The notes beneath the pieces are model-generated. The model was given only the letters and a program-made list of their open reading frames with translations, was not told the DNA's origin and searched no databases. A stretch of 64,000 bases of DNA from NCBI GenBank assembly GCA_002310135.1, contig DBYK01000001.1, positions 367,949 to 431,948 on the forward strand, written 5' to 3'. Positions 1,090-23,022 of this stretch are shown here, one piece after another. Source of the stretch: Bacillales bacterium UBA1188 (GTDB taxonomy: Bacteria > Bacillota_I > Bacilli_A > Izemoplasmatales > UBA1188). Within the stretch, counting starts at the first letter, position 1, and each line of letters starts with the position of its first letter. The position numbers and the translations under genes are program-made.

Positions 1090-1872
1090 TTAGTATCCTC
1101 TACTCGCTAAATCTCTACATAATTCATAATAAAATTCATAAACCTTTTCACGTTTTTTCTTGCTTGCTGAAAAACCATTAATTTCTGAATGTGATATTGA
1201 TTCTTTAAAGGCATTGCCTTTATATTCACCAAATGCTGCGGAATCATTTGATACTAAGCCATCAGAATCTTTATCTTTTTCAAAATGATGGAAGAATAGG
1301 AGTGGAATACCCATGATAAAATCATCTTTTGGTTTATCCATTTTTGTTGAATAACTTTGGCAATATACTTTATTACCTATATCGAACGTTTCCTCTTCTA
1401 TCGCATTTGATTCAGATAATTCTATGCATGCATTTAGTGAATCAGGATGCTTATCACCTAAAATCTTATACCAAGTGTTTATGAAGAAAGCGGTTGTCTT
1501 TAAAATCCATTTAGGTAATTTCAATATATTGGTTGCGATAGGACTTCCTTTATGAGGCGTGCACAAAGTAGTGAGACTTGATACTTTATCCTCCATATCT
1601 AGTTTCATTATCATATATTTAGAATCAAGTCCACCCTTAGAATGTGCAATAATGTTTACTTTATCGCACTTCATAGTATCTATTATTCTTAGAATTTCTT
1701 CTTTTAGTATTTGTGCATTGTTTTCTATCGTTCCGAAACTATCGATTTGACTTCTATAAACTGTATATCCTTTTTCATTCAGTTTTTTATCTATTTTTCC
1801 AAAAGATTTAAAAAATATAGTGTCTCGAACCGTTAGCCCATGGACAAGTACTATAGGATATTTTGTGTTCAC
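1090..1872 (-). CDS. alpha/beta hydrolase (small lipase/esterase-like)
   Basis: 260 aa with N-terminal PIVLVHGL and nucleophile elbow AHSKGG (A/G-x-S-x-G). GTG start preceded by a GAGGT RBS. Directly downstream of the GNAT gene. Confidence 0.7.
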   Translation of the reverse strand: MNTKYPIVLVHGLTVRDTIFFKSFGKIDKKLNEKGYTVYRSQIDSFGTIENNAQILKEEILRIIDTMKCDKVNIIAHSKGGLDSKYMIMKLDMEDKVSSLTTLCTPHKGSPIATNILKLPKWILKTTAFFINTWYKILGDKHPDSLNACIELSESNAIEEETFDIGNKVYCQSYSTKMDKPKDDFIMGIPLLFFHHFEKDKDSDGLVSNDSAAFGEYKGNAFKESISHSEINGFSASKKKREKVYEFYYELCRDLASRGY

Positions 1873-1885
1873 TAAAATACCTCAT

Positions 1886-2488
1886 TTATAATAATAAAGT
1901 TTCTTTATGAGAAAATTCAAACTCAATATTCTTTTTTGGATTTTTAAGAAGTGACATTACTCCTGGTTCAGATACGCCTAGATTAGTGCTGAAGACTAAT
2001 TTTCTATATGGAATAAAACCACATTTTTCTTGAACTCTTTTTGACCTATTATTTTTATCAAAGTGACTGCACAATAAAAAATCTAAATCATAATCATTGA
2101 ATAGATAATCGATCACTTTATTCACAGCTTCACACATAATCCCCCTTCCCCAATAATCTTTAGATAAAACAAAACCTAGTTCTCTTCCTTTATAATCTTT
2201 AAATTCAGTTAGTTCATCTTCTAGTTTATATCTTTCAATGCCTAATGAACCTATTACTTTATTGTTTTCTTTATAGACTATCGCGAAGGTTCTATCGTTA
2301 TTTATAAAATTATTAAGTATCTTTAGTGATTCTTCAGTGTTATTGTGATGAGGCCAACCAGCCATTTCACCAACCCCATCAACTTTTGCGTATTCATAAA
2401 AATCGGATAAATCTTCTATTTTCCATCCTCTAAGTATTAATCTTTCAGTTTCTAAAACTACATTATTGATACTAAAAATTGCGTTCAT
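1886..2488 (-). CDS. GNAT family N-acetyltransferase (RimJ/RimL-like)
   Basis: Trimmed to ATG 2488 (MNAIFSINNVVLETERLILRGW...). Carries a YWGRGIMCEAV acetyl-CoA loop-like motif. The extra 25 N-terminal codons in the track ORF are unsupported. Confidence 0.75.
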   Translation of the reverse strand: MNAIFSINNVVLETERLILRGWKIEDLSDFYEYAKVDGVGEMAGWPHHNNTEESLKILNNFINNDRTFAIVYKENNKVIGSLGIERYKLEDELTEFKDYKGRELGFVLSKDYWGRGIMCEAVNKVIDYLFNDYDLDFLLCSHFDKNNRSKRVQEKCGFIPYRKLVFSTNLGVSEPGVMSLLKNPKKNIEFEFSHKETLLL

Positions 2489-2650
2489 AATACTAACCCT
2501 TGTACTTCTTATAATAACATTATAACACATCATTCTTTTAAAAAATGGCCCTCTATAGCTCAAGTATTTGACTTAATACTTTAAATAATCTATTTTTTGA
2601 ATTATAATATTTTTAGAATTACATATAAAATTAAATATTTGGAGGAAAAA

Positions 2651-3496
2651 ATGATTTACGTATTATTCAATTCTAAATCTAACAATTCTCATGGCGAAGA
2701 GGATGCTAGAAAATGGGCAGAAAGGCTAACTCAAGATGTCGAATTTGTGGAGCTTGTTGGGCTTGACTACAAAAAATTCTTTGATGGTCTAACTGAAGAT
2801 GATGAAGCAATTCTATGTGGTGGAGATGGAACTGTAAATTATTTCGCTAATGAAATGTATGGATATGATTTCAAATGCAAATTATCTTATGTGAAATGTG
2901 GTTCAGGAAACGACTTCTATAGAGATGTAGAAGAATATGAAAAAGATGGAAAAATTGATTTTAAACCATTCCTTAAAAACTTACCACTAATTAAAGTAAA
3001 TGGAATTGAAAGAAGATTCTTAAATGGTATTGGTTATGGTCTTGATGGTGAAACTTGTCTTGTTGGAGATCAAATTAGAGAAAAAGATCCAGGAGCTAAA
3101 ATCAATTATACTAATATCGCAATAAAACTACTTCTTGGAGGATATACAGTTAGAAAGGCTACTGTTACTGTTGATGGAGTAACTAATGAATATGAAAATG
3201 TATGGCTTTCAAGTACTATGTTTGGTAAATATTATGGTGGCGGAATTATGGCTGCACCTAAACAAAATAGACTAAATGAAGAACACACTTGTACAGTAAC
3301 AACTCTATCAAGTACTGGAAGACTTAGGACTTTCTTAAGATTCCCTACTTTCTCAGGTGGAAAACACGATGGAAAGAAATGGATTAATCATACTGTAGGA
3401 CATAGTTTCAAAGTTTCCTTCGATATTCCATGTGCACTTCAAATAGATGGTGATGTAGTACCTGAAGTTAAGGAATACGAAGTTGTGATTGATTAG
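2651..3496 (+). CDS. diacylglycerol-kinase catalytic-domain lipid kinase (YegS/BmrU family)
   Basis: Trimmed to ATG 2651 behind GGAGG. DAGK_cat motifs CGGDGTVN and GSGNDF, plus C-terminal IDGD. Confidence 0.75.
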   Translation: MIYVLFNSKSNNSHGEEDARKWAERLTQDVEFVELVGLDYKKFFDGLTEDDEAILCGGDGTVNYFANEMYGYDFKCKLSYVKCGSGNDFYRDVEEYEKDGKIDFKPFLKNLPLIKVNGIERRFLNGIGYGLDGETCLVGDQIREKDPGAKINYTNIAIKLLLGGYTVRKATVTVDGVTNEYENVWLSSTMFGKYYGGGIMAAPKQNRLNEEHTCTVTTLSSTGRLRTFLRFPTFSGGKHDGKKWINHTVGHSFKVSFDIPCALQIDGDVVPEVKEYEVVID

Positions 3497-3498
3497 TT

Positions 3499-5031
3499 AT
3501 GAAAAAATATGATTGTGTAGTAATAGGTGCAGGAAATGGTGGTCTGAGTGCTGCAGTCAAAATTCTTATGGGTAAAAAAAGCTGCCTCGTATGTGAAAAG
3601 CACAATATACCTGGAGGTTTTGCGACATCTTTTGTAAGAGGTAGATTTGAATTTGAAGCTTCTCTTCATGAATTCAATGGAATAGGAAATGAGGAGATGT
3701 GTGGCAGCACAAAAAGAATGTTCGATGAACTTGAAGTAAGCGATTTAATAGAATGGATTCAAGTTAAAAATGCATATAGATTGATATCTAAAGAAGAAGG
3801 GATAGATTTCGTTCTTCCTTTTGGTATTGATAATATCATTAAAGCTTGTGATACATTATGTGAAAATGGCGGAATTGAGGCAAAAAAGATAATTGATTTA
3901 TCTAAAACAATTTATGAAGCTGTAGGATATTTAAGTGATTCAAAAGGTAACCCAGACCCTGAGGTTATGAAGACAAAATATTATGATTATCTTGCGACTT
4001 CTTCTTATTCTGTCAATGAAGTATTTGAATCCCTTAAAACTCCAAAAATCATTAAAAATGTTTTAAGCGCATATTGGAGTTATTTAGGAGTTGACTTCGA
4101 TAATATGAGTTTTGTGCATTATGCGAATATGACTTATTCATATTACAGTATGGGGGCTACTGTCCCTAAATATAGAAGTCATGAATTATCATTAGCGTTT
4201 GAGAAGAGAATTCATGATTTAGGAGGAGATATCTTCTATAACACTGAAGTTAAAAAGATTTTAACTGATGAAGTTGGTCATGTATCAGGTGTAGAACTTT
4301 CAAATGGTGAGGTAATTGAGACAAGACATGTTATTGCGAACTGTTCGCCACACGTTGTATATTCAAATATGTTAGACCCTAAAGTTGTCCCTGAAAGAGC
4401 TCTTAAATTATGCAATTTTAGGAAATTTGCGGGAAGAGGAATAACTATTTTCTTAGGACTTGATTCTTCTCCTGAAGAACTTGGAATAACTGAACATTCA
4501 TATTTCATTTATAATTCAAGTGATTCAGTAAAAATGTATAATGAGATGAAAGATCTTCATCATCATGTTGGCCAAGCAACTTGTTGTCTTAATAATGTTA
4601 ATCCTGATTGTTCTGAAAAAGGAACTACTATTCTTTATATGACATCTCTCTATTTTGATGATGCTTGGAAAGATGTTGAAGAAAAAGATTATTATAAATT
4701 CAAAAATGAAGTTGCGGAGAAATTTATTGAAGATTTTGAAGTTGCGACTGGCGCAAAAATAAAAGGTCATATAGAAGAAATAGCTATCGCAACGCCTCAA
4801 ACATACGCAAGATACACTGGACATCCTCAAGGAGTAATCTATGGGTATGAAGGTAAATATGATGACGGACTAATGGCGAGAATTATGATGGTTAATGAAG
4901 ATGCGTTTATTAAAGGTCTTAGATTTGGAGGAGCCTATGGTGAAAGAGAAATAGGTTATCCATCTTCATATAAGAGTGGTTATAATGAAGCTAAAAGAAC
5001 CCTAAAAGATATGGAAAAGGAGGGCTCATAA
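3499..5031 (+). CDS. FAD/NAD(P)-dependent oxidoreductase, phytoene-desaturase (CrtI/COG1233)-like
   Basis: 510 aa with N-terminal dinucleotide-binding VVIGAGNGGLSAA...E. Length and layout resemble CrtI-family amine-oxidase-fold enzymes. Start is 2 nt after the upstream stop. Confidence 0.7.
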   Translation: MKKYDCVVIGAGNGGLSAAVKILMGKKSCLVCEKHNIPGGFATSFVRGRFEFEASLHEFNGIGNEEMCGSTKRMFDELEVSDLIEWIQVKNAYRLISKEEGIDFVLPFGIDNIIKACDTLCENGGIEAKKIIDLSKTIYEAVGYLSDSKGNPDPEVMKTKYYDYLATSSYSVNEVFESLKTPKIIKNVLSAYWSYLGVDFDNMSFVHYANMTYSYYSMGATVPKYRSHELSLAFEKRIHDLGGDIFYNTEVKKILTDEVGHVSGVELSNGEVIETRHVIANCSPHVVYSNMLDPKVVPERALKLCNFRKFAGRGITIFLGLDSSPEELGITEHSYFIYNSSDSVKMYNEMKDLHHHVGQATCCLNNVNPDCSEKGTTILYMTSLYFDDAWKDVEEKDYYKFKNEVAEKFIEDFEVATGAKIKGHIEEIAIATPQTYARYTGHPQGVIYGYEGKYDDGLMARIMMVNEDAFIKGLRFGGAYGEREIGYPSSYKSGYNEAKRTLKDMEKEGS

Positions 5032-6198
5032 ATGTTTAAAAGAAATGAAAATCCAATGGTAGATGTCCAAAAAGGATTAAACATTGTTAATAAGAGAAGA
5101 GAAGCTATTGATAATTCTCCTTCTACTCCTCTTCCAAAATCATATAAAGTTAATGAACTCTCAAAATCTTTACATCCAGGAATGATTAAAGCGGAATTAA
5201 TTGATATTAAAGATTCAATATCTGATTATAAAATTTTAACTTTTAAATCATTATCTAAGAATAAAAGATTTCCATATTTTAAGGCAGGACAATTTATTAC
5301 AATTTCAGCTAGAGTTAAGGGTTCTATAGTTACAAGACCTTATTCAATTTATTCATCACCTAAAGATGCCTTAAATGGAATAATAGAAATAGGTGTAAAA
5401 AGAAGCGGATTCTTCTCTAATTTTTTAGTTGATGTAATAAAGATAGGAACAAAAGTTATGATTGGAGAGCCATCTGGAGATTTCTATTATGATAACTTAA
5501 GAGATAAAAAGAATATAGTTGGGATTGCGGGTGGATCAGGTGTTACTCCATTTGTATCTATGATTAAATCTTTAATTGAGGGCACAGATGACTTCAATCT
5601 AACATTATTTTATGGCGTTAGAAAAAGAGAATTTATGATGTATGATTTTAGTTCAATTAATGACCCAAGAATAAAGATTATAATTATATTATCTGAAGAA
5701 AAAGTTGATGGTTATGAATATGGCTTCATCACAAAAGATATTTTAAATAAATACCTTAAAGGTGATTATTCAGTCTTTATGTGCGGACCAGATCCTATGT
5801 ATGAGTTTGTTTCAAAAGAATTCGCTAAACTTGGGGTTGATTATCATAAAATAAGATTTGAACATAACACTATAGGAGATGATCCAACTCTTAAGCACAT
5901 TGAACATAAACTTACAGTACACTTAAGAGATGAGGTACACGTTATACCTTCTTATGAAAACGAAACCATACTTACAGCCATGGAAAAAGGAGGGTTATAT
6001 ACTCCATCTAGATGTAGAAGTGGATTCTGTGGGTTCTGTCACTCAAGATTAATAAGTGGAGATTATTATACTCCTTCTAAATATGATCATAGAAGAGGGG
6101 CAGATAAAAAATTTGGATATATTCATCCTTGTGCAACATATCCAAAAAGTGATATGGAAATAGATGTTCCACCACTAGATGAACTAAAGGAGTTATGA
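5032..6198 (+). CDS. ferredoxin-NAD(P) reductase-like flavoprotein with C-terminal 2Fe-2S ferredoxin domain
   Basis: Motifs RPYSIYS (FAD), GIAGGSGVTPF (NAD(P)H) and plant-type cluster CRSGFCGFCHS...HPC. The ATG abuts the upstream stop. Confidence 0.75.
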   Translation: MFKRNENPMVDVQKGLNIVNKRREAIDNSPSTPLPKSYKVNELSKSLHPGMIKAELIDIKDSISDYKILTFKSLSKNKRFPYFKAGQFITISARVKGSIVTRPYSIYSSPKDALNGIIEIGVKRSGFFSNFLVDVIKIGTKVMIGEPSGDFYYDNLRDKKNIVGIAGGSGVTPFVSMIKSLIEGTDDFNLTLFYGVRKREFMMYDFSSINDPRIKIIIILSEEKVDGYEYGFITKDILNKYLKGDYSVFMCGPDPMYEFVSKEFAKLGVDYHKIRFEHNTIGDDPTLKHIEHKLTVHLRDEVHVIPSYENETILTAMEKGGLYTPSRCRSGFCGFCHSRLISGDYYTPSKYDHRRGADKKFGYIHPCATYPKSDMEIDVPPLDELKEL

Positions 6199-6199
6199 T

Positions 6200-6871
6200 A
6201 TGACAACACCAGTAATTATATTCACAGTTGTATATTCGTTAGTGCTTGTTGCGTATTTCTTTACTGAAACAAGCGGAAAGATGTATTTAAGAGCCCCAAA
6301 TAAGGTTCTTCTTGCGCTTATGTTTTTCGTCTTTGCGTGTATAGTCTTTTCAATAGATGATAAATATTCTCTTCTTTCATATCATGGTTTATTTATGGCG
6401 GGATTATTTCTTGCGATGCTTGGGGATATATTTCTTCTATTTGATTTAAATAGAGGAGGAGATTTCTTCTTAGCAGGAAATGTGTGTTTCATCATCTATG
6501 AACTCTCAGTGCTTAGTCAACATTCAATTAAATTTAGTGAATATTGGTGGGTGATATTAGTATCTTTAATCTTACTTCTCACATATTATTTCCTTTTCAC
6601 TAAATTTGATAAGTTCTTTAAAATGGGGAAGATGAAATATCCAATGTTGTTTTATTTATCATCAATTACACTCCATGGAGTTATGGGGATTGCGGTGATG
6701 ATATATGTTCCATCTCTTCTTCTTTTAGGACTTGGTTCACTTCTATTCTTTATATCTGATTTGATACTTACAGTAGATAGATTCGCACTTAAAAACAATT
6801 GGAGCTTAAGAGCTAACAGCGCATTCTATTTTACTGGATTATTATTGATGGTTTTAAGTATGGTAGTTTAA
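6200..6871 (+). CDS. YhhN-family membrane protein (lysoplasmalogenase/TMEM86-like)
   Basis: 223 aa, polytopic. MLGDIFLL, LLFFISDLILTVDRF and YFTGLLLM align with E. coli YhhN motifs as I recall them. Start is 1 nt after the upstream stop. Confidence 0.65.
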   Translation: MTTPVIIFTVVYSLVLVAYFFTETSGKMYLRAPNKVLLALMFFVFACIVFSIDDKYSLLSYHGLFMAGLFLAMLGDIFLLFDLNRGGDFFLAGNVCFIIYELSVLSQHSIKFSEYWWVILVSLILLLTYYFLFTKFDKFFKMGKMKYPMLFYLSSITLHGVMGIAVMIYVPSLLLLGLGSLLFFISDLILTVDRFALKNNWSLRANSAFYFTGLLLMVLSMVV

Positions 6872-6876
6872 TAATT

Positions 6877-6904
6877 AAAAAAGACCTTACATAAGGTCTT
6901 TTAT
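6877..6904. terminator. bidirectional rho-independent terminator between two convergent operons
   Basis: aaaa-AAGACCTT-acat-AAGGTCTT-ttatt: perfect 8-bp stem flanked by an A-run and a T-run. Confidence 0.7.
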
Positions 6905-6907
6905 TAT

Positions 6908-8089
6908 TTAAAAATCTAATGAATCAATATTTGAAAGTAAATCATGAGCTTTTTTCTTAAATGTCTCAAGTTCAGCTTCAAATGTTGGTTCATTTTTTCT
7001 ATGTTTAGAAATATATTTAATCATATGAAGAGAATTAAGACATTTAATTTTATCATTCACTTCTTTTATCTTGCCTTCATCAGTAGTATTTAGATATAAC
7101 CTGATGAACTTAGGCCAAATCTGTGAATATAATTCTTCTTTCATTCCTAAGAAGTTTTCAATTAACTTAGGATTGATTTCACCAATACCAACATAAGCGA
7201 AATAGGTATTCGCAAGATCAAATATTCTATTTCCATAAGACAAAGTATCCATATCTATTATTAATGCTTCCCCATTTTGAAGCATAATGTTGTTTGTGTG
7301 AAAATCTCCATGAAGCATTTTAAGAGGTGCTTTTAAAGCTTTGATTAAGGCTTCTGCCTTATCGCTATCTTCTTTACTCAAAAAAATCTTAGATGCTTCA
7401 ATCCATTCACCACCAATTTCAGTATTCGCATTAGGCATATCAGTCGATTTAACTTCAGTTCCATGAATGATTTTTACAAGATCAACCATCTGTTCAACAT
7501 ATTTATCTAAATCATCTGGATTATTTTTGATTGCATCTGAAAGTGATAATGCATCTAGTAATTCAAATACTGAACCATATTTATCACCAACAACTACAAC
7601 ATCAAAAGGAATTACTGTAGGTACGCCTAAGATAAATGCTTTTCTTGCGAGGTCTCTTTCTCTATTTATTTCTGGTAGACTATCGCTATTTTTATATACT
7701 TTGATGATTGTATCATCATCATATTTATAAATAATGCCTTTAGCTCCTTTTCCAATCACTTTACAACCATCCACTGACATCTTTCTATAAGCTTTTTCGA
7801 TTGGAATCATTTCAGAGAAACCAGTCATCTCAAAGATTTCATATGCTTCAACAGAAACATTTATTATCTTTAAAGATTTTTCTTTTTTCTTTAGTCTTAA
7901 AACAACACGAAGACCGGCACTTGAAATATAATTCAGGTTTCTTGCGTCTATTATCACATCCCCTTCTTTATTTATAGATCTAATATCATTAATCTCAGTT
8001 TCTGTGGCTTCGGCGTTTGCTGAGTCTAATCTTTCATTTAGTTTTAAATATAAAGTATTGTCTTTAAACTCGTATGATATATAGTTCAT
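6908..8089 (-). CDS. STAS domain fused to an aminoglycoside/choline-kinase-like (protein-kinase-like fold) domain
   Basis: aa 1-100 form a STAS domain (NLNYISSAGLRVVL, MTGF). The remainder has Gly-loop GKGAKGIIY, IIKVYK, catalytic HGDFHTNNIM and IIDMDT. RBS AGAGGAG lies upstream. Confidence 0.7.
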   Translation of the reverse strand: MNYISYEFKDNTLYLKLNERLDSANAEATETEINDIRSINKEGDVIIDARNLNYISSAGLRVVLRLKKKEKSLKIINVSVEAYEIFEMTGFSEMIPIEKAYRKMSVDGCKVIGKGAKGIIYKYDDDTIIKVYKNSDSLPEINRERDLARKAFILGVPTVIPFDVVVVGDKYGSVFELLDALSLSDAIKNNPDDLDKYVEQMVDLVKIIHGTEVKSTDMPNANTEIGGEWIEASKIFLSKEDSDKAEALIKALKAPLKMLHGDFHTNNIMLQNGEALIIDMDTLSYGNRIFDLANTYFAYVGIGEINPKLIENFLGMKEELYSQIWPKFIRLYLNTTDEGKIKEVNDKIKCLNSLHMIKYISKHRKNEPTFEAELETFKKKAHDLLSNIDSLDF

Positions 8090-8100
8090 TTTGCTCCTCT

Positions 8101-10965
8101 TTATTTAATTCTCTTTTTAATTGTGAAAATATTTTTATCGTTTGTGAATTCATAGTGGACGCTATCCATTGACTTTTTAACCATATAAATACCTAAACCA
8201 CCAATAGATCTTTCTTCAGAAGATAATGTAATATCTGGATTATCTTTGGATAGAGGATTGAATGGAATGCCTGAATCAATGAATCTGATTGTGGCAATAT
8301 CATCTTTAATTAATATTCCGATAGTGGCATTCCCGGTTGAATCTATATAAGCATAATGAGCAATATTTATGAATATCTCTTCAATCGCTATAGATATTTG
8401 ATTAATAGCTTTCATAGATGCTTCTTTCTTTTCAAGTTCACCTATAATGAAGTTTGTGACATTTGCTAGTTCAGAATCTTGAGCTTTAAATGTTCTTTCA
8501 ATCATTGGATTTGAATCTCCATAATAACTTATCATTAACATTGTAATATCATCGAATTGTTCAGCTTCACCTTTGAATTTGTCGATATCAACTTTGATTC
8601 CTTTTAAGACTTCTTCCATTGATTCTTCTTTATGTTCATTTAAATAATTTATTAATCGAGGTTCTCCATATAATTCTTTATCTATATTGTTTGCTTCAGT
8701 AACGCCATCAGTATAAAGATAAATCTTATCGCCTGGATTTAAATCTAATTCTTGTGGTTTATAAATGAAACCATCTATACCACCTAATACTAAACCAGAT
8801 TTAGATTTGATATATTCAAAACCTTTATCTTTTCTATAGATGAGTGGTGGGTTATGGCCTGCATTCGCAAATGTGACATGTCCATTTGTGTAATCTAATA
8901 TACCCATCCAACATGTGACAAACATACCTGCATCATTATTACTGCACAGTTTGTTGTTCGCATCACTTAAAACTACATCTACTGGCTTTCCAGATTCAGC
9001 CATATTCTTAAGTAATGTTTTAGCTGTCATCATGAAGAGGGCTGCGGGTATACCTTTACCTGAAACATCCGCAACTAGGAATGCGACTTCGTGATCACTT
9101 ACCATATAGAAATCGTAGAAATCACCTCCAACTTCTTTTGCGGTATCCATAGTTGCATAAATATCAAAATATTTTAAAGCAGGGAATGGCGGGAATACTG
9201 ATGGTAAAGATGAGTGCTGGATGTTTTTCGCAAACGCTAATTCGTTGTCTATTCTTTGCGATTCTAGTTCTATATAATGTTTTAGAGTTGAAACTGTAGA
9301 GTTAATGTCATCTGATAGAGATGAAAATTCATCACTAGTATAAACATTCACTCTAGTATCTAAATTACCGCCTATAATTTTAGATAAACTATCATTAACT
9401 TCTCTTATGTTGTTCACTACATATTTTTTAATTAGGAAGTAGATGTGGAAGAAGAATATCGCAAACACTATTACTTCCATGAAAGAATTAACATATAATT
9501 GAGCATCTCTAGTCGAATAAGCTTCTTCTTCAGATAAAACACCAATAACTAAAAAATCAGTGAGTTTTTTATACATTACGAATACTTTTTCTTTATCTAT
9601 CGTCTTTCTTACTACTGACATTTCATCATTTTGATTTATTAATGATTCAACTGTTTCAGCTAAAGCGCTATCACTAGAAATGGGTTTATCGTTATTTTGA
9701 ATATCTTGGTTGTGCTTGTTTAAAATGATGTAGTAACCAGTACTTCCAATACGTCTTGATTCAGTATATTTAATTACTGTTTCTTCTATACTTTCTTCAT
9801 ATTTATCTTTATCATAACCAACTTGAATAAATTCAGTGTCGTTTAATTTAACAGCTGCATATTTCCTATATGTAGTTGAATCATATCCAATAGGCCCAAA
9901 TTCTTGAACCATTTCAAGCGTGTTTTGAGTATCTATTAAAACCATGAATGCATTAGACTGTTCAGAGCTACGCATATTAAAGCCTATATCAACATATTCT
10001 TGGTTAGTGCTCTTAATTATTAATCCAGTGCTATCCACAACATTTATTTCACTGATTTCAAACTCATTCATTAATGAAACTAAATCTATATCATTGTTGA
10101 ATCTGTATCTATTGACTATTTCATGGCTTTTCATAAGAAGAGATTCATTTAATAAATCTTCATCAGAATTCTTAATGATCTCAAAAGATACATCGTTGAT
10201 GTTTTGTTCTAAAAGATTGTTTGCTTGACTTAAAGCGGTCGATGTTTGAAGTTGATATACAAATAAAGTGGTTGCAAGATATGTTAGAACAATTGAAACT
10301 AATAACCAGTTTTGAACCTGTTGTGATATCTTTCTGTTTCTTGGCTCTCCGTTTCTTATCTTAAATGATACGAAAGAAACAAGAATAACAGATAACATTA
10401 CAGATATAGAATTAACTAACACCATTGGTATAGTACATATCTCAACTATTCTTATGGCTTCCAAAGGTTCATTTAAATGAGTGATGAAAATTAGTGTCAT
10501 ATGGACAGTCTCCATTACAACACCAGTCACAAGAGCTAAAGCCCATGTTGGACGTTTGTTATCAAACATAAATTTTCTTAAGAATGCAGCATAAAGACCT
10601 GCAAGAATAGTCGATATCGAGCATGCTACTTGAGAATACGCAAGTCCAGGTTTCCAGATGACCGCAAGAAATCTTTCAATTCCACCAATTAAACCTGAAA
10701 CAATTCCAGCATATGGGCCGAATATTAGGCCTGCGCAAAGTGGTGCTGCATCTCTTGCATTAGCGGTTGCCCCACCAATTTCTACACCAAATTCAGTGCC
10801 TACTATAGCAGCAAGTCCAAATACCACACCTATTATTATTTCTTGTCTTATTCTTGGTATATCATTGAAACTAGTTCTTTTCTTTAATATATGAAAAACT
10901 CCCGATAAAGTTATCGGAATTAAAGCACAAAGTGATAATTTTAAAATGATGTCGAAATCAAACAT
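8101..10965 (-). CDS. membrane sensor with PP2C/SpoIIE phosphatase and RsbW/SpoIIAB-type serine-kinase (HATPase) domains in one polypeptide
   Basis: Start moved to ATG 10965, because the track's TTG start lies inside the GGAGG RBS. Domain order:
- N-terminal multi-TM 5TMR-LYT-like region (ARDAAPLCAGLIFGPYAGIVSGLIGG)
- TM, ~250-aa extracytoplasmic region, TM
- HAMP-like segment
- PP2C motifs GGDFYDF, DVSGKG, TDGVTEA, DDITML
- C-terminal GGLGIYMVKKSMD ATP-lid. Confidence 0.8.
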   Translation of the reverse strand: MFDFDIILKLSLCALIPITLSGVFHILKKRTSFNDIPRIRQEIIIGVVFGLAAIVGTEFGVEIGGATANARDAAPLCAGLIFGPYAGIVSGLIGGIERFLAVIWKPGLAYSQVACSISTILAGLYAAFLRKFMFDNKRPTWALALVTGVVMETVHMTLIFITHLNEPLEAIRIVEICTIPMVLVNSISVMLSVILVSFVSFKIRNGEPRNRKISQQVQNWLLVSIVLTYLATTLFVYQLQTSTALSQANNLLEQNINDVSFEIIKNSDEDLLNESLLMKSHEIVNRYRFNNDIDLVSLMNEFEISEINVVDSTGLIIKSTNQEYVDIGFNMRSSEQSNAFMVLIDTQNTLEMVQEFGPIGYDSTTYRKYAAVKLNDTEFIQVGYDKDKYEESIEETVIKYTESRRIGSTGYYIILNKHNQDIQNNDKPISSDSALAETVESLINQNDEMSVVRKTIDKEKVFVMYKKLTDFLVIGVLSEEEAYSTRDAQLYVNSFMEVIVFAIFFFHIYFLIKKYVVNNIREVNDSLSKIIGGNLDTRVNVYTSDEFSSLSDDINSTVSTLKHYIELESQRIDNELAFAKNIQHSSLPSVFPPFPALKYFDIYATMDTAKEVGGDFYDFYMVSDHEVAFLVADVSGKGIPAALFMMTAKTLLKNMAESGKPVDVVLSDANNKLCSNNDAGMFVTCWMGILDYTNGHVTFANAGHNPPLIYRKDKGFEYIKSKSGLVLGGIDGFIYKPQELDLNPGDKIYLYTDGVTEANNIDKELYGEPRLINYLNEHKEESMEEVLKGIKVDIDKFKGEAEQFDDITMLMISYYGDSNPMIERTFKAQDSELANVTNFIIGELEKKEASMKAINQISIAIEEIFINIAHYAYIDSTGNATIGILIKDDIATIRFIDSGIPFNPLSKDNPDITLSSEERSIGGLGIYMVKKSMDSVHYEFTNDKNIFTIKKRIK

Positions 10966-10994
10966 TATAGTAGCCTCCAATTAGCAAGAATAGT

Positions 10995-11291
10995 TTATTC
11001 AATATCTATAATGTCTGAAAAACCAGTCATTTCAAATATATCTTTTATATCATCACATGCATTTATTATTTTCATGTGTCCAATTTTATTCATCTTTTTT
11101 TGAGATAGAAGCATTACACGTAATCCTGCTGAAGAGATGTATTCAAGATTCGAAAAATCAAAAACTAAATCAATAATTGAATCACCAAATTCATTCAATT
11201 TTTCTTCTAATTCTGGAGCCGTAACGGTATCTAATCTTCCCTCTAAAGCAACTACTGCTTTTCCTTCTTCTGTCAAAATGTTAATAGTCAT
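10995..11291 (-). CDS. STAS-domain anti-sigma-factor-antagonist-like protein (RsbV/SpoIIAA family)
   Basis: 98 aa. NLEYISSAGLRVML phospho-Ser motif and MTGF motif. First gene of the operon. Confidence 0.85.
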   Translation of the reverse strand: MTINILTEEGKAVVALEGRLDTVTAPELEEKLNEFGDSIIDLVFDFSNLEYISSAGLRVMLLSQKKMNKIGHMKIINACDDIKDIFEMTGFSDIIDIE

Positions 11292-11445: not shown

Positions 11446-11468
11446 AAAAAAACCACCATTTCTGATGG
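11446..11468 (-). terminator. rho-independent terminator closing island 1 transcription
   Basis: Minus strand reads GCCATCA-gaaa-TGGTGG followed by TTTTTTT. Confidence 0.55.
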
Positions 11469-11551
11469 CTTTAATAATTAAATACCAAAAACTAAAGCGT
11501 TCTTTATAACTTAATAGTTTTACCAACTAGTATCAATGTATGAATACATTA

Positions 11552-11767
11552 TTAATAGGCTTGGACATTTGTTAATACTTTTAACATATTCTTTATTTTC
11601 TTTTTTAAGCATATATCTAAGGCGTCTTCAAATGTATATCCAGCATATATTTTATCCATTCCGCCTGAGCCATTTATTGCTGATTTATATTTAACAAATT
11701 CATCAAGAAAACTAATTAATTCATTTTTTCTATTTAAAGAAGGCCTCTCATAGTGAAATTTTACCAT
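11552..11767 (-). pseudogene. possible 5' remnant of a COG3981-type GNAT acetyltransferase (71 codons)
   Basis: MVKFHYERPSLNRKNELISFLDEFVKYKSAINGSGGMDKI... resembles the N-terminus of ~175-aa acetyltransferases as I recall them. It terminates early and sits at the island edge. Confidence 0.3.
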
Positions 11768-11768
11768 T

Positions 11769-12623
11769 TTATTCAACTCCCAAATATTCAAGCGAGCTAA
11801 TAAACATTTCTTTATTTATATTATCAATATTGTAATCGGTATTAACGAAAGGAATTATATCTGACTTTAAAGAATTAAAATCTGTTTGTTCAAACCTTTC
11901 TTTTAATAGCTCTTTAATATCATCAATAGTATAATCTGATGTATCTTTATTTAAAGAATACTTTAATTTGTTTTTTAAATAATCCAAATTAATTTTTATA
12001 TTGTGAGAGACATAAAACATATAGTCATAATAATCTCTTCCTTTAGTTCTTTCTCTCCAGTTTCTTGTTATTAATGCATTTAATTTGCTTGCAAATAATG
12101 ATTCATAATTAAAACAATATATATTAGAAAACATTGGGGAATTAAGTAATTTCATTTCATATTTAGCTCCAGGTATAAATACAGTACTAACTTCAATTTT
12201 GATTGAAAGTAGTTTTTCTTTGTTCATATTAATTTTGCCAAAAAATTCACTAGCAATATCATAATGAGATATTTTTATATATCTTCTTCTAACTTCACCA
12301 CTATCATAATCTGATTTTGAATATACTATAGATTTTAAACCATATGATTCAAGTACAGTTATACATTTAGACATGTATTGATCAAAATCTAATTTATAGT
12401 CTTCACTTATTACTTGAAAATCTAAATCTTCACTAAATCTATCTAATCCATGAAAAATTCTTAAGCATGTGCCACCATAAAAGGCGACATTTTTAAAAAA
12501 TGATGTTTGAGCTAATGCATACAATATTATTTTTTGGGATATTTCTCTAAATGCATTTTCAAATTCATATATATTTTTAGGATTACTTAATTTTAAAGAT
12601 TCTAAAATATAATTATTAAACAT
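11769..12623 (-). CDS. abiEii: AbiEii/AbiGii-family nucleotidyltransferase toxin (type IV TA, DUF1814)
   Basis: 284 aa with GGTCLRIFHGLDRFSEDLDF, the family motif. Overlaps the upstream antitoxin gene by 8 nt. Confidence 0.8.
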   Translation of the reverse strand: MFNNYILESLKLSNPKNIYEFENAFREISQKIILYALAQTSFFKNVAFYGGTCLRIFHGLDRFSEDLDFQVISEDYKLDFDQYMSKCITVLESYGLKSIVYSKSDYDSGEVRRRYIKISHYDIASEFFGKINMNKEKLLSIKIEVSTVFIPGAKYEMKLLNSPMFSNIYCFNYESLFASKLNALITRNWRERTKGRDYYDYMFYVSHNIKINLDYLKNKLKYSLNKDTSDYTIDDIKELLKERFEQTDFNSLKSDIIPFVNTDYNIDNINKEMFISSLEYLGVE

Positions 12624-13203
12624 GCTTTGCCTCCAAATATTTTTTTAAAATTTTTAATGTCTTTGATGAATATAACTCACACAATTTAATAATTTTATCC
12701 TTATCTAGTTCATCAAATAATACCTCATCAATTCTTAAATCATCAAACAACAAATCCGTTAATTCTTTCTTATTGTTCCTTGGTGATATTACTGACAATA
12801 AATCAAGCAATGCTTTTTCCTTAGATGCCATCATAACCTTAACACCATCAATTTCAATTTGATTAATATCATATGGATAAGCATTTAAATTAACATCCTG
12901 ATATAAGAATAATCCGAAATTATTTTTATATTCCTTCTTCTTATTTTTTTTAAATGTAGCAGATTTTATAGCATATACTCTTTCAGGTATCATTCCATAA
13001 TAGGCTAAGGCTGTTTCAAAGGAAATATATGATGGTGATAATAAAACATTAGCAATTGTTAAAGGATCTGCATTCTTATTTGTTTCATATAATCCTCTTT
13101 TTAGTTTAATAAGATTATTATTTTTTTCCTCATATGCAATTTTGTTATAAATATTTGAATAATTTCTATATTCATATATTAACATGTCAATAGTCTTAAT
13201 CAT
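12616..13203 (-). CDS. abiEi: AbiEi-family antitoxin / transcriptional regulator
   Basis: Trimmed to ATG 13203 behind AGGAGG. LIKLKRGLYETN-type N-terminal wHTH pattern. Paired with AbiEii. Confidence 0.75.
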   Translation of the reverse strand: MIKTIDMLIYEYRNYSNIYNKIAYEEKNNNLIKLKRGLYETNKNADPLTIANVLLSPSYISFETALAYYGMIPERVYAIKSATFKKNKKKEYKNNFGLFLYQDVNLNAYPYDINQIEIDGVKVMMASKEKALLDLLSVISPRNNKKELTDLLFDDLRIDEVLFDELDKDKIIKLCELYSSKTLKILKKYLEAKHV

Positions 13204-13225
13204 ATTATTTCCTCCTGTTACTACT

Positions 13226-13254
13226 ATTATACAGTAGTTATTGGTGGAAATCAA
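13226..13254 (-). promoter_or_regulatory. abiE promoter (TTGATT-17-TATAAT) with inverted repeat ACTACT-N7-AGTAGT across the -10
   Basis: Minus strand reads TTGATTtccaccaataactactgTATAATagtagtaacAGGAGGaaataatATG. Confidence 0.6.
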
Positions 13255-13262
13255 GCATATTG

Positions 13263-13299
13263 TTAAAAAATAAAAAACTGACACTTTATTGTATCAGTT
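13263..13299 (-). terminator. strong rho-independent terminator insulating the abiE module
   Basis: Minus strand reads AACTGATAC-aataaa-GTGTCAGTT then TTTTTTATTTTTT. A homologous copy lies at 32545-32582. Confidence 0.7.
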
Positions 13300-13490
13300 T
13301 TATTGTTTAAATATGTCTTTATGCAACTCGTTATAATTGCTAAAAAGTGGAAATGATACTCGTTATACTTACATTTTCCTGCTAAAAAGTGGAAACTAGA
13401 GGAAAATTCGTAATCAAGATTTTTTTCGAGAAAAAATAATTATTTAAAGTAATAAGTGTTAAATAATAATTTGATGTAAAATGATATATT

Positions 13491-13531
13491 TTTAGCAAAA
13501 GAAAACACCTTTGATGTAATCGCGGGTGTTT
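13491..13531 (-). terminator. terminator of the MTase/nuclease operon
   Basis: AAACACC-N15-GGTGTTT hairpin 20 nt after the stop, followed on the minus strand by TTTTCTTTTG. Confidence 0.6.
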
Positions 13532-13550
13532 TAAATTCGTAAAGATTTTA

Positions 13551-15119
13551 CTAATTTTTAATAAGAACTCTTCCCAATGGTAACGTTGATTGAATCAAAC
13601 GAGCTATATCAGCCTTTCTAGCATTAATATAAGTTTCTTGTTCATTTTCAAATCTGTTAAAATCAACTGTGTTCATTGATGTTTGAAGTAAAATATCTCT
13701 TGAGATAATCGCATTATATTTTGCAACTTTATGAGTAATATATTGATTTTGAATACTCTTGTTAACTTGTTCACACAACAATATATAATTTCCTATATTA
13801 TCAATTAATTCTTTTTGCAATTCACGATGAGACGGCCATCCATTCCCAGCCCATTCAGAATCTGGATTCTGTGGATAAATATGTTCCAGATTAATAGTAT
13901 TAACATTAACAGTACCTGAAATATTTCGACAGATTACATCTATTATTAGCAATGCTTTTTTTAACCCTCTTGGAGTTGTAATCGCACCCAATTTATCAGT
14001 AAAATCATTTATATTAATTTGCCAAGTAACAACATCAGAATTTATTTTATTAATTAATGAGGAATTAATATCGTCTGGAGTTTTTCCTGTTTTAACAGCA
14101 TCTACAACATCATTTAATAAATATCTAAATGTTGTAGGGCTTCCGCCATTTAGAGTTAATACAATACTCATCATACATAATGGAACCATGACTTTAAGCA
14201 TATAGTCATGATTTGTATTTATATCAATATGCTTCATCGCTAATATATTTAACACATCTAAAAGAGTATTTCTATTAATATAGTTCACAACATATTTTAT
14301 TGGACTATTACCTATAGTATTTAACAGTGCAATTGTATCAACAAAATCTTGATATGTATTTCTGTCTTTTGTTACATTTTCTCTTAAGAATGTAATAATT
14401 TCCATGTTATCGAAATTCTTATCAAAATTGCTTGATTTTAATTTGTAATAACTAATAATAGATTGTCTAACTTCTTTCATTTTAGATGTATCAAATCTTA
14501 TTCCATATGCCAATGAATATTGATCTAATGCAGTTTTTATAACTTCATCTTTTGATAGTGGTTTACCCCCAGTATTGATTTGTTGAAATATATTAAATGC
14601 ATCATCAGCATTACTACATTTTTTCATATAAACATAAATATTATTTTTAATAATTTTTATAAAGTCATTAATTCTATCTATGTTATCACGAATAAAACTA
14701 TAAAAATCTAAATATACCTTTTTAAAAGGTGCTGTTGCATAGTTCGTGAAATGAGTTTCATACTTTTGTTGATTAGCAAAAACATCATATTTTATATCAA
14801 ATAAATCTATGTCGTCAATCACTAATCCATCTTCTGATGCAATAGTCTTAATAACTTTTATCAAATTATTCAAAGTTACTAATCTTTGCTGACCATCTGC
14901 AAACTTAATTCTTCCATCTTCTTCATAATAAATAAAATCTAAAAAATACAATTGTGATTGTTGATTATCTATTACCTTCAATAAATCTTCTTTTAATTGA
15001 ACTATTTCTTTTTCCTTCCAATCATAAAATCTTTGAAAAATAGGTATACCAATTTTTTTATTTTGCCAATCATATAATTTAATGTACTCAGAAGTAATAT
15101 CATTACTATTTATTAACAT
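13551..15119 (-). CDS. DUF262 + DUF1524 protein (GmrSD/SspE/BrxU-type nuclease architecture)
   Basis: N-terminal IPIFQRFYDW, ADGQQRLVTL and FQQINTGGKPLS. C-terminal His-Me finger LEHIYPQ ... NIGNYILLCEQVNKSIQN. Confidence 0.85.
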   Translation of the reverse strand: MLINSNDITSEYIKLYDWQNKKIGIPIFQRFYDWKEKEIVQLKEDLLKVIDNQQSQLYFLDFIYYEEDGRIKFADGQQRLVTLNNLIKVIKTIASEDGLVIDDIDLFDIKYDVFANQQKYETHFTNYATAPFKKVYLDFYSFIRDNIDRINDFIKIIKNNIYVYMKKCSNADDAFNIFQQINTGGKPLSKDEVIKTALDQYSLAYGIRFDTSKMKEVRQSIISYYKLKSSNFDKNFDNMEIITFLRENVTKDRNTYQDFVDTIALLNTIGNSPIKYVVNYINRNTLLDVLNILAMKHIDINTNHDYMLKVMVPLCMMSIVLTLNGGSPTTFRYLLNDVVDAVKTGKTPDDINSSLINKINSDVVTWQININDFTDKLGAITTPRGLKKALLIIDVICRNISGTVNVNTINLEHIYPQNPDSEWAGNGWPSHRELQKELIDNIGNYILLCEQVNKSIQNQYITHKVAKYNAIISRDILLQTSMNTVDFNRFENEQETYINARKADIARLIQSTLPLGRVLIKN

Positions 15120-15133
15120 ATTTTTTCACCCCA

Positions 15134-15511
15134 CTATGCCTTTTGGTAGACGATTCTTTCGCCTTTCTTTAATTCATTAATTTCTTTATATGCATAAATT
15201 CCATCTTGATTAGCTAGACCATCTGGATGAAATGCATTACTACTAAACAAATTACGAATTATAACTCTAAATCGTTCTTGGTTATTTGATGGTAATATTT
15301 CTTGAAAATAAAGTGGAATATTATCTAAATTATCACAAACAATATCATAATAAAGAGGTATAATTGTATCACTATCTATTGGACCATTATATTCAACAAT
15401 TTCTTGTACAGCAATTTCTCTTAAAATAACCCAAAAAGCATCGTGACCAACCTTTTTTGTTGATGCATATTTAAGTCTATGTATTTCTCTTTTTAATACG
15501 TCACCTAACAT
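15134..15511 (-). CDS. hypothetical 125-aa protein, translationally coupled between MTase and nuclease
   Basis: The ATG is 1 nt after the MTase stop, with RBS AGAGGTGA inside the MTase 3' end. I recognise no motif. Confidence 0.6.
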   Translation of the reverse strand: MLGDVLKREIHRLKYASTKKVGHDAFWVILREIAVQEIVEYNGPIDSDTIIPLYYDIVCDNLDNIPLYFQEILPSNNQERFRVIIRNLFSSNAFHPDGLANQDGIYAYKEINELKKGERIVYQKA

Positions 15512-15512
15512 T

Positions 15513-16622
15513 TCAGTTCACCTCTTTCTTTAACAAGAATAAATATTCTTTTACATGTATATCTCTATCTCTTAAGTTTCGACATCCTCTAAATACATTG
15601 TATTTTTTATCAAAAGCTCTTACTTCACCTAGTTGTTCCAACATTTCAACCATTTCTTCATATGATATAAAGCCTTCAGAATTATATGAAATCAAAATAT
15701 ATGTTGCATTTATATCATTGCAAAGCTGTCTCATTGATTCTAACGCCTCGTTTTTTTTGTTATATGTTGATTTATTCCAACCAACTGGAATACCAGAAAC
15801 GGAAGATACATTGTCAGGCTCTTTATAGTTATTTATTAAGTTCAACATAAAGTAATTTGATCCATAAGGGTGTTGGTTATATGGTGGGTCTAAATATGCT
15901 AAATCGACATGTGGCAACTGTTTACATATAACGTTTGAATCGCCTTGAAAAACATGAACATTACAATTGTTTTGACTTAGTATTGGCATTTTCAGTTCTA
16001 TATTTGCAAGAATTCTTTGCAAAGCATTTTTTCCATCGCCACCAAATTGTCCTATATGTGTTTTGGAATTTTTATAGAAGCCTTTAAATACTCCTGAGGT
16101 GTTGTTTTTGGTTGAAGCTTCATATAAAAGAGGACCTAAGAGTAAAGTCTTATAAGGTTCAGGAACTTCTTCAATATATTTTCGAGCAGTATCTAGATAA
16201 TTTGCATTTCTTGTTGTATAAAACACTCTTTCTCCAGGTTGTATATTTTTATCATCCTTTGGTGCATACAATCTAGAAATGAATCCATTTGTTTCTAAAG
16301 GATTATTTTTTAACTTATCAGTTATATCATCAAACCACTTTTTTAACTCGTTTAAATTAATATCACTTTCATTTGCTAAATAGCACCTATTTATCGTATT
16401 ACAATAATCCTCTAAGTCATTAGTATATAAGTTCTTTGAATACTGCTTTAAAAATCTAGAAACAATCCCTGATCCTGCAAAAACATCAAAAGTATCTATT
16501 TTGTCTACATTTAATTCATCGATGACAAGTTTAATTGCACTATCAATAAAATCTAAAAGAGATCTTTTATTTCCTAAATATGTAATTATTTGTTCTGTCA
16601 AATATACATTTCTTTCGGTCAT
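15513..16622 (-). CDS. N6-adenine DNA methyltransferase, D12 (Dam/M.FokI-like) class
   Basis: YLGNKRSLL, DVFAGSG (motif I), YLDPPYN (motif IV) and ILISYNSEG. These are collinear with M.FokI domain motifs as I recall them. Confidence 0.85.
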   Translation of the reverse strand: MTERNVYLTEQIITYLGNKRSLLDFIDSAIKLVIDELNVDKIDTFDVFAGSGIVSRFLKQYSKNLYTNDLEDYCNTINRCYLANESDINLNELKKWFDDITDKLKNNPLETNGFISRLYAPKDDKNIQPGERVFYTTRNANYLDTARKYIEEVPEPYKTLLLGPLLYEASTKNNTSGVFKGFYKNSKTHIGQFGGDGKNALQRILANIELKMPILSQNNCNVHVFQGDSNVICKQLPHVDLAYLDPPYNQHPYGSNYFMLNLINNYKEPDNVSSVSGIPVGWNKSTYNKKNEALESMRQLCNDINATYILISYNSEGFISYEEMVEMLEQLGEVRAFDKKYNVFRGCRNLRDRDIHVKEYLFLLKKEVN

Positions 16623-16796
16623 AATATTCCACGTCTTTCATAAAAAGTTATGAAGGCTTTGAAGTATCAAATTGTATGAATTATTAGAACGAAACGTTTA
16701 TTGATAAAATGTAGGAAAAATGTGGCAAATATCGTGCTTTATATAGAAATTTTGAGAAAAATATAGAATACTATATGAGATTTATTGAAGAATTTT

Positions 16797-16843
16797 AGAG
16801 GTATCAAAACGTATACATTTTTATATTGTTTGTTGATACCTCT
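16797..16843. repeat. inverted repeat AGAGGTATCAA-N25-TTGATACCTCT upstream of the recombinase gene
   Basis: Perfect 11-bp arms read directly from the sequence, 70 nt upstream of the recombinase start. Candidate res/crossover or operator site. Confidence 0.5.
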
Positions 16844-16913
16844 TTTAATTTGCTTTCAAACTTGATAAATCCTCCTTTTTATGGCTTTATATGTAGAAAT
16901 GGAGGTGAGTAAA

Positions 16914-17513
16914 TTGATTTATGCGTATATACGTGTTTCAACTAAACAACAGAAAATCGATAGACAATATGAAGAAATAAAAGCTCTTGATATTGATGAC
17001 AAGCATATCTATATTGATAAAGAATCAGGAAAAGACTTTGATAGAACCAATTATCAAAAATTAATTAAGAAAATAAAAAAAGACGACCTACTAATTGTTA
17101 AATCAATAGATCGTCTAGGTAGAAATTATAAAATGATATTAGATGAATGGGCTTATATAACTAAAACTAAAGAAGCTGATATTAAGGTACTTGATATGCC
17201 ACTTCTAGATACTAGAATTGAAGGAAAAAATCTAGTTGGCAAATTTATAAGTGATATAGTACTTCAAGTATTATCTTTTGTCGCTGAGAATGAAAGAAAT
17301 AATATTAAAGAGCGTCAAGCTGAAGGTATTCGAATTGCAAAAGAAAAAGGTGTTAAGTTTGGTAGGCCAAAAGTATCTACCCCACCTAACACCAATGAAA
17401 TATTAGATAAATATATAAATCATGAAATAACTAATACTGAAGCTGCAGAATTAATTGATGTATCAAGAGGAACATTCTTTAGATTAGTTAAAGAAAGAAA
17501 ACGTATAATATAG
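16914..17513 (+). CDS. small serine recombinase (resolvase/invertase family)
   Basis: IYAYIRVSTKQQKIDRQ catalytic-Ser motif and C-terminal HTH (TNTEAAELIDVSRGTFFRLV). Probable TTG start at 16914 behind GGAGGTG; the track ORF begins at 16881. Confidence 0.85.
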   Translation: MIYAYIRVSTKQQKIDRQYEEIKALDIDDKHIYIDKESGKDFDRTNYQKLIKKIKKDDLLIVKSIDRLGRNYKMILDEWAYITKTKEADIKVLDMPLLDTRIEGKNLVGKFISDIVLQVLSFVAENERNNIKERQAEGIRIAKEKGVKFGRPKVSTPPNTNEILDKYINHEITNTEAAELIDVSRGTFFRLVKERKRII

Positions 17514-22916: not shown

Positions 22917-23022
22917 AAAAAACCATCCTTTCTTTTATTTTAACACAAAAGTAAAAACTCATTTTACCACTTTGTCAATAACAAGTGATATAATTCTTTT
23001 GTATTTAGGAGGAGTAAATAAA

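Follow-up and report, generated by a model that had tools for sequence, protein, structure and literature searches.

A conserved operon of a rumen bacterium combines partner-switch proteins and a STAS-fused APH-like kinase, with no sigma factor encoded in the operon

The DNA analysed here, referred to as the window, is a 64-kb stretch of contig DBYK01000001.1 from a rumen bacterium (Bacillales bacterium UBA1188, bovine gut metagenome), and this account concerns an operon of three minus-strand genes within it. In order of transcription these encode a single-domain STAS protein, a membrane sensor that carries both a PP2C phosphatase and an RsbW-type serine kinase domain, and a protein in which a STAS domain is fused to an aminoglycoside phosphotransferase (APH)/choline-kinase-like domain (Table 1). 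All three open reading frames (ORFs) are where the initial annotation of this DNA had placed them, and its gap of 11 nucleotides (nt) between the sensor and fusion genes stands. Its 14-nt gap between the STAS and sensor genes does not; the sensor reading frame is open up to a TTG at 10980, from which 14 nt would be obtained, but because a GGAGG ribosome-binding site precedes the ATG at 10965 we assign the start to that ATG, which gives 29 nt, and the TTG falls inside this ribosome-binding site. The other two starts also follow Shine-Dalgarno sequences, which are GAGG for the ATG at 11291 and GAGGAG for that at 8089. A terminator-like hairpin of the upstream gene forms the 5′ boundary of the operon promoter region, an AT-rich spacer also precedes the operon, and a bidirectional intrinsic terminator forms its 3′ end. 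Because of the ribosome-binding sites and the flanking terminators the three genes are predicted to be a single transcription unit, and because the same set recurs in dozens of unrelated genomes it is not a chance association.

The APH-like domain of the fusion protein scores 56.8 bits with PF01636, against a cutoff of 23.2 bits, and an AlphaFold2 model (predicted local distance difference test score, pLDDT, 93.3) has a bilobal kinase fold whose best Foldseek matches are APH(2''), APH(3′) and capreomycin phosphotransferase structures, at about 1e-9 and 13–17% identity (e.g. APH(2'')-Ib, 3uzr, 8.6e-10). Across 25 homologues with 47–76% identity the kinase residues G113/G115/G118, K130, E144, H260-x-D262-x4-N267 and D279 are invariant, as are Y54, S56, S57, A58, G59, L60 and R61 of the fused STAS domain. 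The claim of a kinase-like fold with intact catalytic motifs is thus borne out by Pfam, Foldseek and the invariant residues alike, and judged by its motifs the domain is catalytically intact. It reaches the cutoff of no specific subfamily in Pfam or NCBIfam; the best specific model is TIGR02172 (Fibrobacter paralogous kinase-like), at 106.9 versus the 228.2 bits required, and the choline kinase model scores 28 versus 29.

The free STAS protein matches the anti-sigma-factor antagonist model TIGR00377 (NCBIfam) at 3.7e-18, over its cutoff, and resembles RsbV-type proteins in that helix 2 opens with a conserved, phosphorylatable serine. Both STAS domains carry the YISSAGLR motif that had been reported for them, and alignment with SpoIIAA places the equivalent of its phospho-Ser58 at the second serine of YISSAGL, which is S54 in the free protein and S57 in the fusion. 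Free and fused STAS domains fall into two classes, with all 128 of the 128 sequences compared having their nearest neighbour in their own class; identity is about 0.52 within a class and 0.35 between classes, and 0.41 for the pair in the window. The free protein is therefore no recent copy of the fused domain, and by this comparison the two are old, separately conserved paralogue classes. Since the free STAS is anciently separate and independently conserved, it presumably has a conserved role of its own.

The sensor has eight transmembrane (TM) helices by hydropathy, six of them within the N-terminal 200 residues, and belongs to an architecture with 1891 database matches. Its 5TMR-LYT, PP2C and HATPase domains, called earlier from the letters alone, are recovered by Pfam, and the extracytoplasmic domain put at about 250 residues measures 254. 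This ectodomain is probably double-Cache-like: in the AlphaFold2 model (pLDDT 83.8) a long stalk helix is followed by two alpha/beta modules, the ectodomain/HAMP part matches a dCache chemoreceptor model (9a65) in Foldseek, and a sensor homologue (P0144) has a precomputed dCache_1 match. A Pfam search with the ectodomain returned no significant call, the lone weak hint being Cache_WalK (E 0.068). The HAMP-like linker of the initial annotation is seen as a PF00672 match and is helical in the model, but the match falls below the gathering score. All four metal-binding motifs of the phosphatase are present (GGDFYD613, DVSGKG633, YTDGV751 and DDIT805), with a TM-score of 0.85 to the SiaA PP2C domain (6k4e), as are the N-box (862), G1 (896) and G2 (922) boxes of the HATPase. 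The best structural match of the sensor is 3ke6, the fused RsbU and RsbW domains of Rv1364c (6.5e-16), with further matches to the PP2C domains of RssB, SiaA, SpoIIE and RsbX.

Table 1. Features of the operon and of its flanks, in window coordinates.
Feature	Position	Strand	Residues or length	Basis and remarks
Free single-domain STAS gene	10995–11291	minus	98 amino acids (aa)	Pfam STAS 1.5e-12; likely phospho-acceptor S54 in YISSAGLR
Membrane sensor gene (PP2C phosphatase and RsbW-type Ser kinase)	8101–10965	minus	954 aa	Pfam, TM helices, motifs
Sensor: 5TMR-LYT module	10378–10872	minus	32–196	PF07694 5TM-5TMR_LYT 1.6e-31
Sensor: extracytoplasmic domain	9487–10248	minus	240–493	between TM7 (221–239) and TM8 (494–512)
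Sensor: HAMP-like linker	9280–9426	minus	514–562	PF00672 E 8.7e-4, 20 bits vs 25-bit gathering score
Sensor: PP2C/SpoIIE phosphatase	8527–9096	minus	624–813	PF07228 9.5e-56
Sensor: HATPase_c_2, RsbW/SpoIIAB-type GHKL Ser kinase	8113–8487	minus	827–951	PF13581 1.4e-15
STAS-APH fusion gene	6908–8089	minus	393 aa	
Fusion: STAS domain	7790–8083	minus	3–100	PF01740 4.8e-12; likely phospho-acceptor S57
Fusion: APH/choline-kinase-like domain	6911–7780	minus	104–393	PF01636 3.6e-15
Terminator-like hairpin of upstream gene	11449–11472	minus		10-bp stem, then T-run
Bidirectional intrinsic terminator	6879–6902	both		common to the convergent YhhN gene
PGAP1/DUF676 esterase	1090–1872			near plus-strand run
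DAGK_cat lipid-kinase-like	2597–3496	plus		
Amine-oxidase/desaturase-like	3499–5031	plus		
FNR-like FAD/NAD/2Fe-2S reductase	5032–6198	plus		
YhhN	6200–6871	plus		
AbiEii toxin gene	11769–12623			
Putative AbiEi partner	12616–13284			no profile confirmation
GmrSD	13551–15119			followed by a 125-aa ORF
D12-class adenine methyltransferase	15513–16622			
Serine resolvase	16881–17513			

Canonical partner switches act on a cognate sigma factor whose gene usually lies in the same operon, and none is found here. Two iterative hidden Markov models, one seeded with RpoD regions 2–4 and the other with an extracytoplasmic function (ECF) sigma factor, were run against all ORFs of 50 aa or more in the window and in 85 loci; none was detected in the window, and in the other 82 loci there are five sigma-like ORFs (two group-1/3-like and three ECF-like), which lie 2.3–6.7 kb from the fusion gene, with none inside the operon. 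In the gene calls of the public contig for the same DNA, the roughly 8 kb to each side contain no sigma domain, and in a Pfam census of 117 non-core genes of the same-strand runs no family occurs in more than four and no sigma factor recurs. The statement that neither the operon nor its flanks encode a sigma factor therefore stands, and the proposed check for linkage in relatives turned up only those five outlying ORFs.

The module is real, well-defined and widespread. The fusion protein has 4332 database matches, of which the best 120 are nearly all of about 390 aa with a STAS and an APH domain, and the few that are named bear the NCBI label "anti-sigma factor antagonist". When the kinase half by itself was the query of an exhaustive search, matches grouped at 50% identity gave 387 clusters with E ≤ 1e-30 and 1109 with E ≤ 1e-10, and in most of them the kinase starts near residue 101–105, i.e. 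it is STAS-fused. With one genome scanned per species, at least 585 matching stretches were confirmed. Among the matches listed, most are Clostridia (Lachnospiraceae, Oscillospiraceae and Acutalibacteraceae), mostly from gut and rumen. Isolates such as Coprococcus catus VPIC661 and Flavonifractor sp. An82 are among them, and so are metagenome bins classified as Roseburia intestinalis or Faecalibacterium prausnitzii; some matches carry the name of a commensal species prominent in humans. A few others bear the labels Erysipelotrichales, Spirochaetia, Fibrobacterota or Bacteroidota, the Bacteroidota bins being possibly contamination.

The partners are conserved as well. Where 5 kb or more is available on each side of the fusion gene (40 loci), a gene for an HD_4 protein lies within 5 kb in 28, HATPase_c_2 in 26, a free STAS in 25 and PP2C in 23, so that the linkage proves conserved in relatives. 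Gene order varies among them, and the PP2C and HATPase parts are either fused or split. Some neighbours may be clues to the input signal: an MS_channel gene (L087:88-885) lies directly upstream of an operon with STAS, 5TMR sensor, STAS-HD and STAS-APH genes, and a periplasmic-binding-protein gene precedes the sensor in two loci (L003 and L011). We also note a MatE transporter with a C-terminal RsbW-like HATPase_c_2 domain (L073:13109-14839, and also in L046, L021, L051 and L076), encoded in the fusion operon after Formyl_trans_N and LPG_synthase_C genes and before a second HAMP-PP2C-HATPase sensor; it adds to the membrane-anchored RsbW-like partners available to STAS proteins.

The commonest neighbour of the fusion is a 188-aa HD_4 protein (Pfam HD_4 2.1e-21), encoded directly upstream of it in about 50 of the 77 survey loci. 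The 114 members of this family keep H15, R20, PYIxHP, H54-D55, E58-D59, D122 and N126, which we take to be the catalytic set of RelA/SpoT-type hydrolases (Mesh1/Rel), and by these residues the hydrolase looks active. STAS-HD_4 fusions make up three clusters, all of them encoded in operons that also contain sensor, free STAS and STAS-kinase genes, and further natural fusions include HD_4-STAS-APH, HD_4-APH and the rare HD-CE-STAS-APH (e.g. P0406, 668 aa) and STAS-APH-PHP (e.g. P0376, 705 aa), such that the kinase is attached to three different phosphohydrolase folds. HATPase_c_2-STAS-APH and STAS-APH-HATPase_c_2 single chains also occur, one triple fusion is confirmed as a called gene, and one relative consisting only of the kinase is encoded directly after an HD_4 gene. 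The HD_4, HD-CE and PHP fusions and this kinase-only relative tie the kinase to phosphohydrolases, and because of the natural fusions and the kinase-only relative the HD_4–kinase pair looks like the core of the system, with STAS as a regulatory addition. Taken as domain arrangements, they suggest a kinase/phosphohydrolase pair under phospho-control through STAS, and given the STAS-HD_4 and other fusions the STAS domain appears as a portable regulatory module. In another rare, longer architecture (P0496, 951 aa) a GH3 domain (acyl-adenylate amido synthetase) precedes STAS-APH, which could hint at a carboxylate or amino-acid-conjugate substrate.

The window does encode a protein with RelA/SpoT-hydrolase motifs (AHRNQKRENGEDYANHP and LLHDVIEDTD), in an ORF at 22894–23676 on the plus strand with a probable ATG at 23023. 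Its best sequence match in the PDB is a (p)ppApp hydrolase (7smg, 3e-8), followed by Mesh1 and Rel N-terminal domains, and it has no Pfam match even at E ≤ 5. This ORF is 11.6 kb from the operon, is divergent and belongs to a subfamily other than that of the 188-aa HD_4 proteins, and any link to the operon would be hypothetical.

The domain make-up, the integrity of the catalytic residues, the linkage in relatives and the missing sigma factor are shown by the sequences. From these features we infer the phosphorylation partners, their effect on the kinase and the nature of its substrate, and we favour, at somewhat better than even confidence, a reading in which the operon is a sigma-less serine-phosphorylation signalling unit with the STAS-fused kinase as its output. 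Such a unit would be much like a two-component system, with the STAS domains in the role of receiver domains. The sensor would read a signal through its 5TMR-LYT module, its dCache-like ectodomain or both, and pass it through the HAMP linker to set the balance between its RsbW-type kinase and its PP2C phosphatase, which would respectively write and erase phosphate on S57 of the fusion and S54 of the free STAS. The activity or location of the fused APH-like kinase would then depend on the phosphorylation of its STAS domain, with the fusion either released into the cytoplasm or held at the membrane by the HATPase domain of the sensor; alternatively, control may lie in an intramolecular contact between STAS and kinase. 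Action of the RsbW-like kinase on the fused STAS is supported indirectly, because natural fusions join HATPase_c_2 to STAS-APH at either end. The kinase most likely phosphorylates a small molecule, and in most relatives the adjacent or fused HD_4 phosphohydrolase probably reverses or complements that reaction, the operon of the window being a version with no hydrolase in cis.

Several observations weigh against this reading. First, the model of the fusion protein has a predicted TM-score (pTM) of 0.77. Secondly, among the weak profile hits of the kinase are protein kinases from its own superfamily (CotS, Bud32 and SrkA-like), and HopBF1 is weakly matched in a relative; because of the weak matches to protein kinases a protein substrate is also possible. 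Thirdly, no HATPase gene lies within 5 kb in 14 of the 40 well-flanked relatives, and the switch components therefore need not be encoded together. Finally, HD_4, elsewhere the commonest partner, is missing from the operon in the window, and likewise from those of its closest relatives (L006 and L007).

The rival that survives best, although we judge it unlikely, is a partner switch in which an enzyme has replaced the sigma factor. The HATPase would sequester or inhibit the APH-like kinase domain (and HD_4 in relatives), the dephosphorylated free STAS would compete for the HATPase and free the enzyme, and phosphorylation would only reset the antagonist. SiaABCD and HsbR/HsbA are systems in which switch components govern enzymes through binding. 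A stand-alone HATPase gene of 135–184 aa directly precedes the HD_4 and fusion genes in many relatives, and the order HATPase, HD_4, STAS-kinase, STAS mirrors the canonical position of an anti-sigma gene beside its target; a separately conserved class of free STAS is also what such a competitor would be. Sequestration does not, however, call for the enzyme to bear a STAS domain of its own with an invariant acceptor motif, which a passive target would not need, and the HATPase-STAS-APH single chains are better suited to a kinase and its substrate in cis.

A still less probable account, with only a slim chance in our estimate, makes the APH-like domain a protein kinase within the switch, phosphorylating the free STAS, its own STAS or HD_4. 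The Hanks-type kinase PknD of M. tuberculosis adds phosphate to an anti-anti-sigma factor. The very frequent adjacency of STAS-kinase and free STAS genes, the relatives with no HATPase gene nearby, and the protein-kinase and HopBF1 matches given above would all agree with this. The best Pfam, NCBIfam and structural matches are nevertheless to small-molecule kinases (APH, choline kinase, APH(2''), APH(3′) and capreomycin phosphotransferase); the canonical STAS kinase, HATPase_c_2, is nearly always in the module when the sensor is present; and the repeated fusion to three phosphohydrolase folds suggests a shared small phospho-substrate, not a protein.

An ordinary anti-sigma antagonist system, in which the HATPase binds a sigma factor encoded elsewhere and the kinase is an accessory or degenerate appendage, would fit the NCBI name of the family, the TIGR00377 score of the free STAS and the fact that the part of the genome inspected is 64 kb, but is very unlikely given that no sigma factor is found in the window or in or beside the operon in the other 82 loci, that the invariant catalytic residues argue against a degenerate appendage, and that the ties to HD_4, by linkage and by fusion, speak for enzyme chemistry and not for transcription.

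Comparison with known systems shows what the operon shares with partner switches and where it departs from them. It uses the same STAS, HATPase_c_2 and PP2C families as the Bacillus modules RsbU-RsbV-RsbW-SigB and SpoIIE-SpoIIAA-SpoIIAB-SigF, but differs in having no sigma factor, in carrying kinase and phosphatase on one membrane protein, and in having one STAS fused to an enzyme. HsbR-HsbA of P. aeruginosa is likewise sigma-less, with kinase and phosphatase on one polypeptide that acts on a STAS output. Vibrio fischeri SypE-SypA also has an RsbW-type kinase and PP2C on one polypeptide, a STAS output and no sigma factor, and Rv1364c of M. tuberculosis, the source of the best structural match to the sensor, again joins the two activities. 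The sensor in the window departs from SypE, HsbR and Rv1364c in its input, which is 5TMR-LYT, dCache-like and HAMP instead of REC or PAS, and whereas SypA stands alone, the output STAS here is fused to a kinase. Sigma-less partner switches as such are established, with SypE/SypA, BtrUVW, RbaVW and HmpUVW covered in a review.

Two proteins characterised experimentally in 2026 come closest to the fusion itself. All4160 of Anabaena PCC 7120 combines STAS with a sugar transferase and is under the control of HenR and Alr3423 (bioRxiv 10.64898/2026.04.08.717354); it too is an N-terminal STAS-enzyme fusion in which PP2C and RsbW-type kinases control the STAS serine, and the target of direct regulation is the enzyme and not transcription. 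Its enzyme is a bacterial sugar transferase for exopolysaccharide and not an APH-like kinase, and its system has separate kinase and phosphatase proteins, no free STAS paralogue and no HD_4 partner. CapS is a repressor with STAS and winged helix-turn-helix (wHTH) domains, which the GHKL kinase CapK switches by phosphorylating its conserved STAS serine (EMBO J 2026, PMC13373217). The CapK-CapS pair shares with the fusion a conserved serine in a STAS domain joined to an output domain, and differs from the operon in its wHTH output, its single-stranded DNA signal, its lack of PP2C and its control of phage-defence operons. The fusion of the window has the N-terminal STAS with a conserved serine, the C-terminal effector and the adjacent GHKL kinase and phosphatase of such STAS-effector proteins, with an APH-like kinase in place of a Bac_transf or wHTH effector, and by analogy it would follow the same working principle with a different effector family. 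The pairing or fusion of the kinase with an RSH-type HD_4 hydrolase in relatives also recalls the long RSH enzymes Rel/SpoT, Mesh1 and the (p)ppApp hydrolase; the partner of the hydrolase is in this case an APH-fold kinase and not a synthetase of nucleotidyl-transferase fold.

The earlier remark that no characterised system with this design was known is thus too broad in view of All4160, CapS and SypE/SypA, but holds for the STAS-APH family itself: no description of STAS-APH fusions, of TIGR02172 or of 5TMR-LYT-SpoIIE sensors was found in open-access papers and bioRxiv. What is new is the APH-fold kinase as output, the 5TMR-LYT and dCache-like input, the two conserved STAS paralogues and the family-wide coupling to RelA/SpoT-type and other phosphohydrolases.

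Genes on both sides of the operon are listed in Table 1. Directly upstream is a compact mobile defence islet (11552–17513), with a G+C content of 24–28% compared to about 31% in the operon. We considered the operon as a part of phage defence and rejected this, as none of the three proteins has a PADLOC match and the islet is not kept beside the module in relatives. From the other side, a tight plus-strand run of four genes, in a region spanning 1090–6871, converges on the fusion gene. Elsewhere YhhN is encoded in the operon in two loci (L059 and L074), on the same strand and with a lipase-like hydrolase after the free STAS; LPG_synthase_C, Formyl_trans_N and the MatE-HATPase occur together in five loci, alpha/beta-hydrolases in nine and MFS_1_like in five. 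All of these favour a membrane-lipid theme, which we treat as anecdotal because the YhhN of the window has a counterpart in L013 alone, and DAGK_cat in L042 alone, at a distance of 8 kb. The FNR-like and amine-oxidase neighbours did not recur across the surveyed loci.

Partner switches are usually read as regulators of sigma factors, and the label "anti-sigma factor antagonist" hides a large unstudied family in which STAS would serve as a phospho-regulated handle on enzymes, always an APH-like kinase, often accompanied by a RelA/SpoT-type hydrolase. The module would extend the recent idea that partner switches control enzymes directly, argues against transferring either that label or "aminoglycoside phosphotransferase" to genes of the fusion family, and defines a three- or four-protein system for rebuilding in vitro; what the kinase makes may be a novel metabolite or signal. 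Phosphorylation of ribose hydroxyls is the reaction that small alarmone hydrolases and Mesh1 undo. As a doubtful but possible extension, we speculate that the kinase and HD_4 are a writer/eraser pair for a phosphorylated small molecule whose level is set by the sensor through STAS phosphorylation, and that this molecule may be a nucleotide with a phosphate on a ribose hydroxyl. If so, the pair would represent a messenger-type pathway that has so far gone unrecognised and is widespread among anaerobes of the gut and rumen, among them bins and isolates attributed to Faecalibacterium, Roseburia and Coprococcus.

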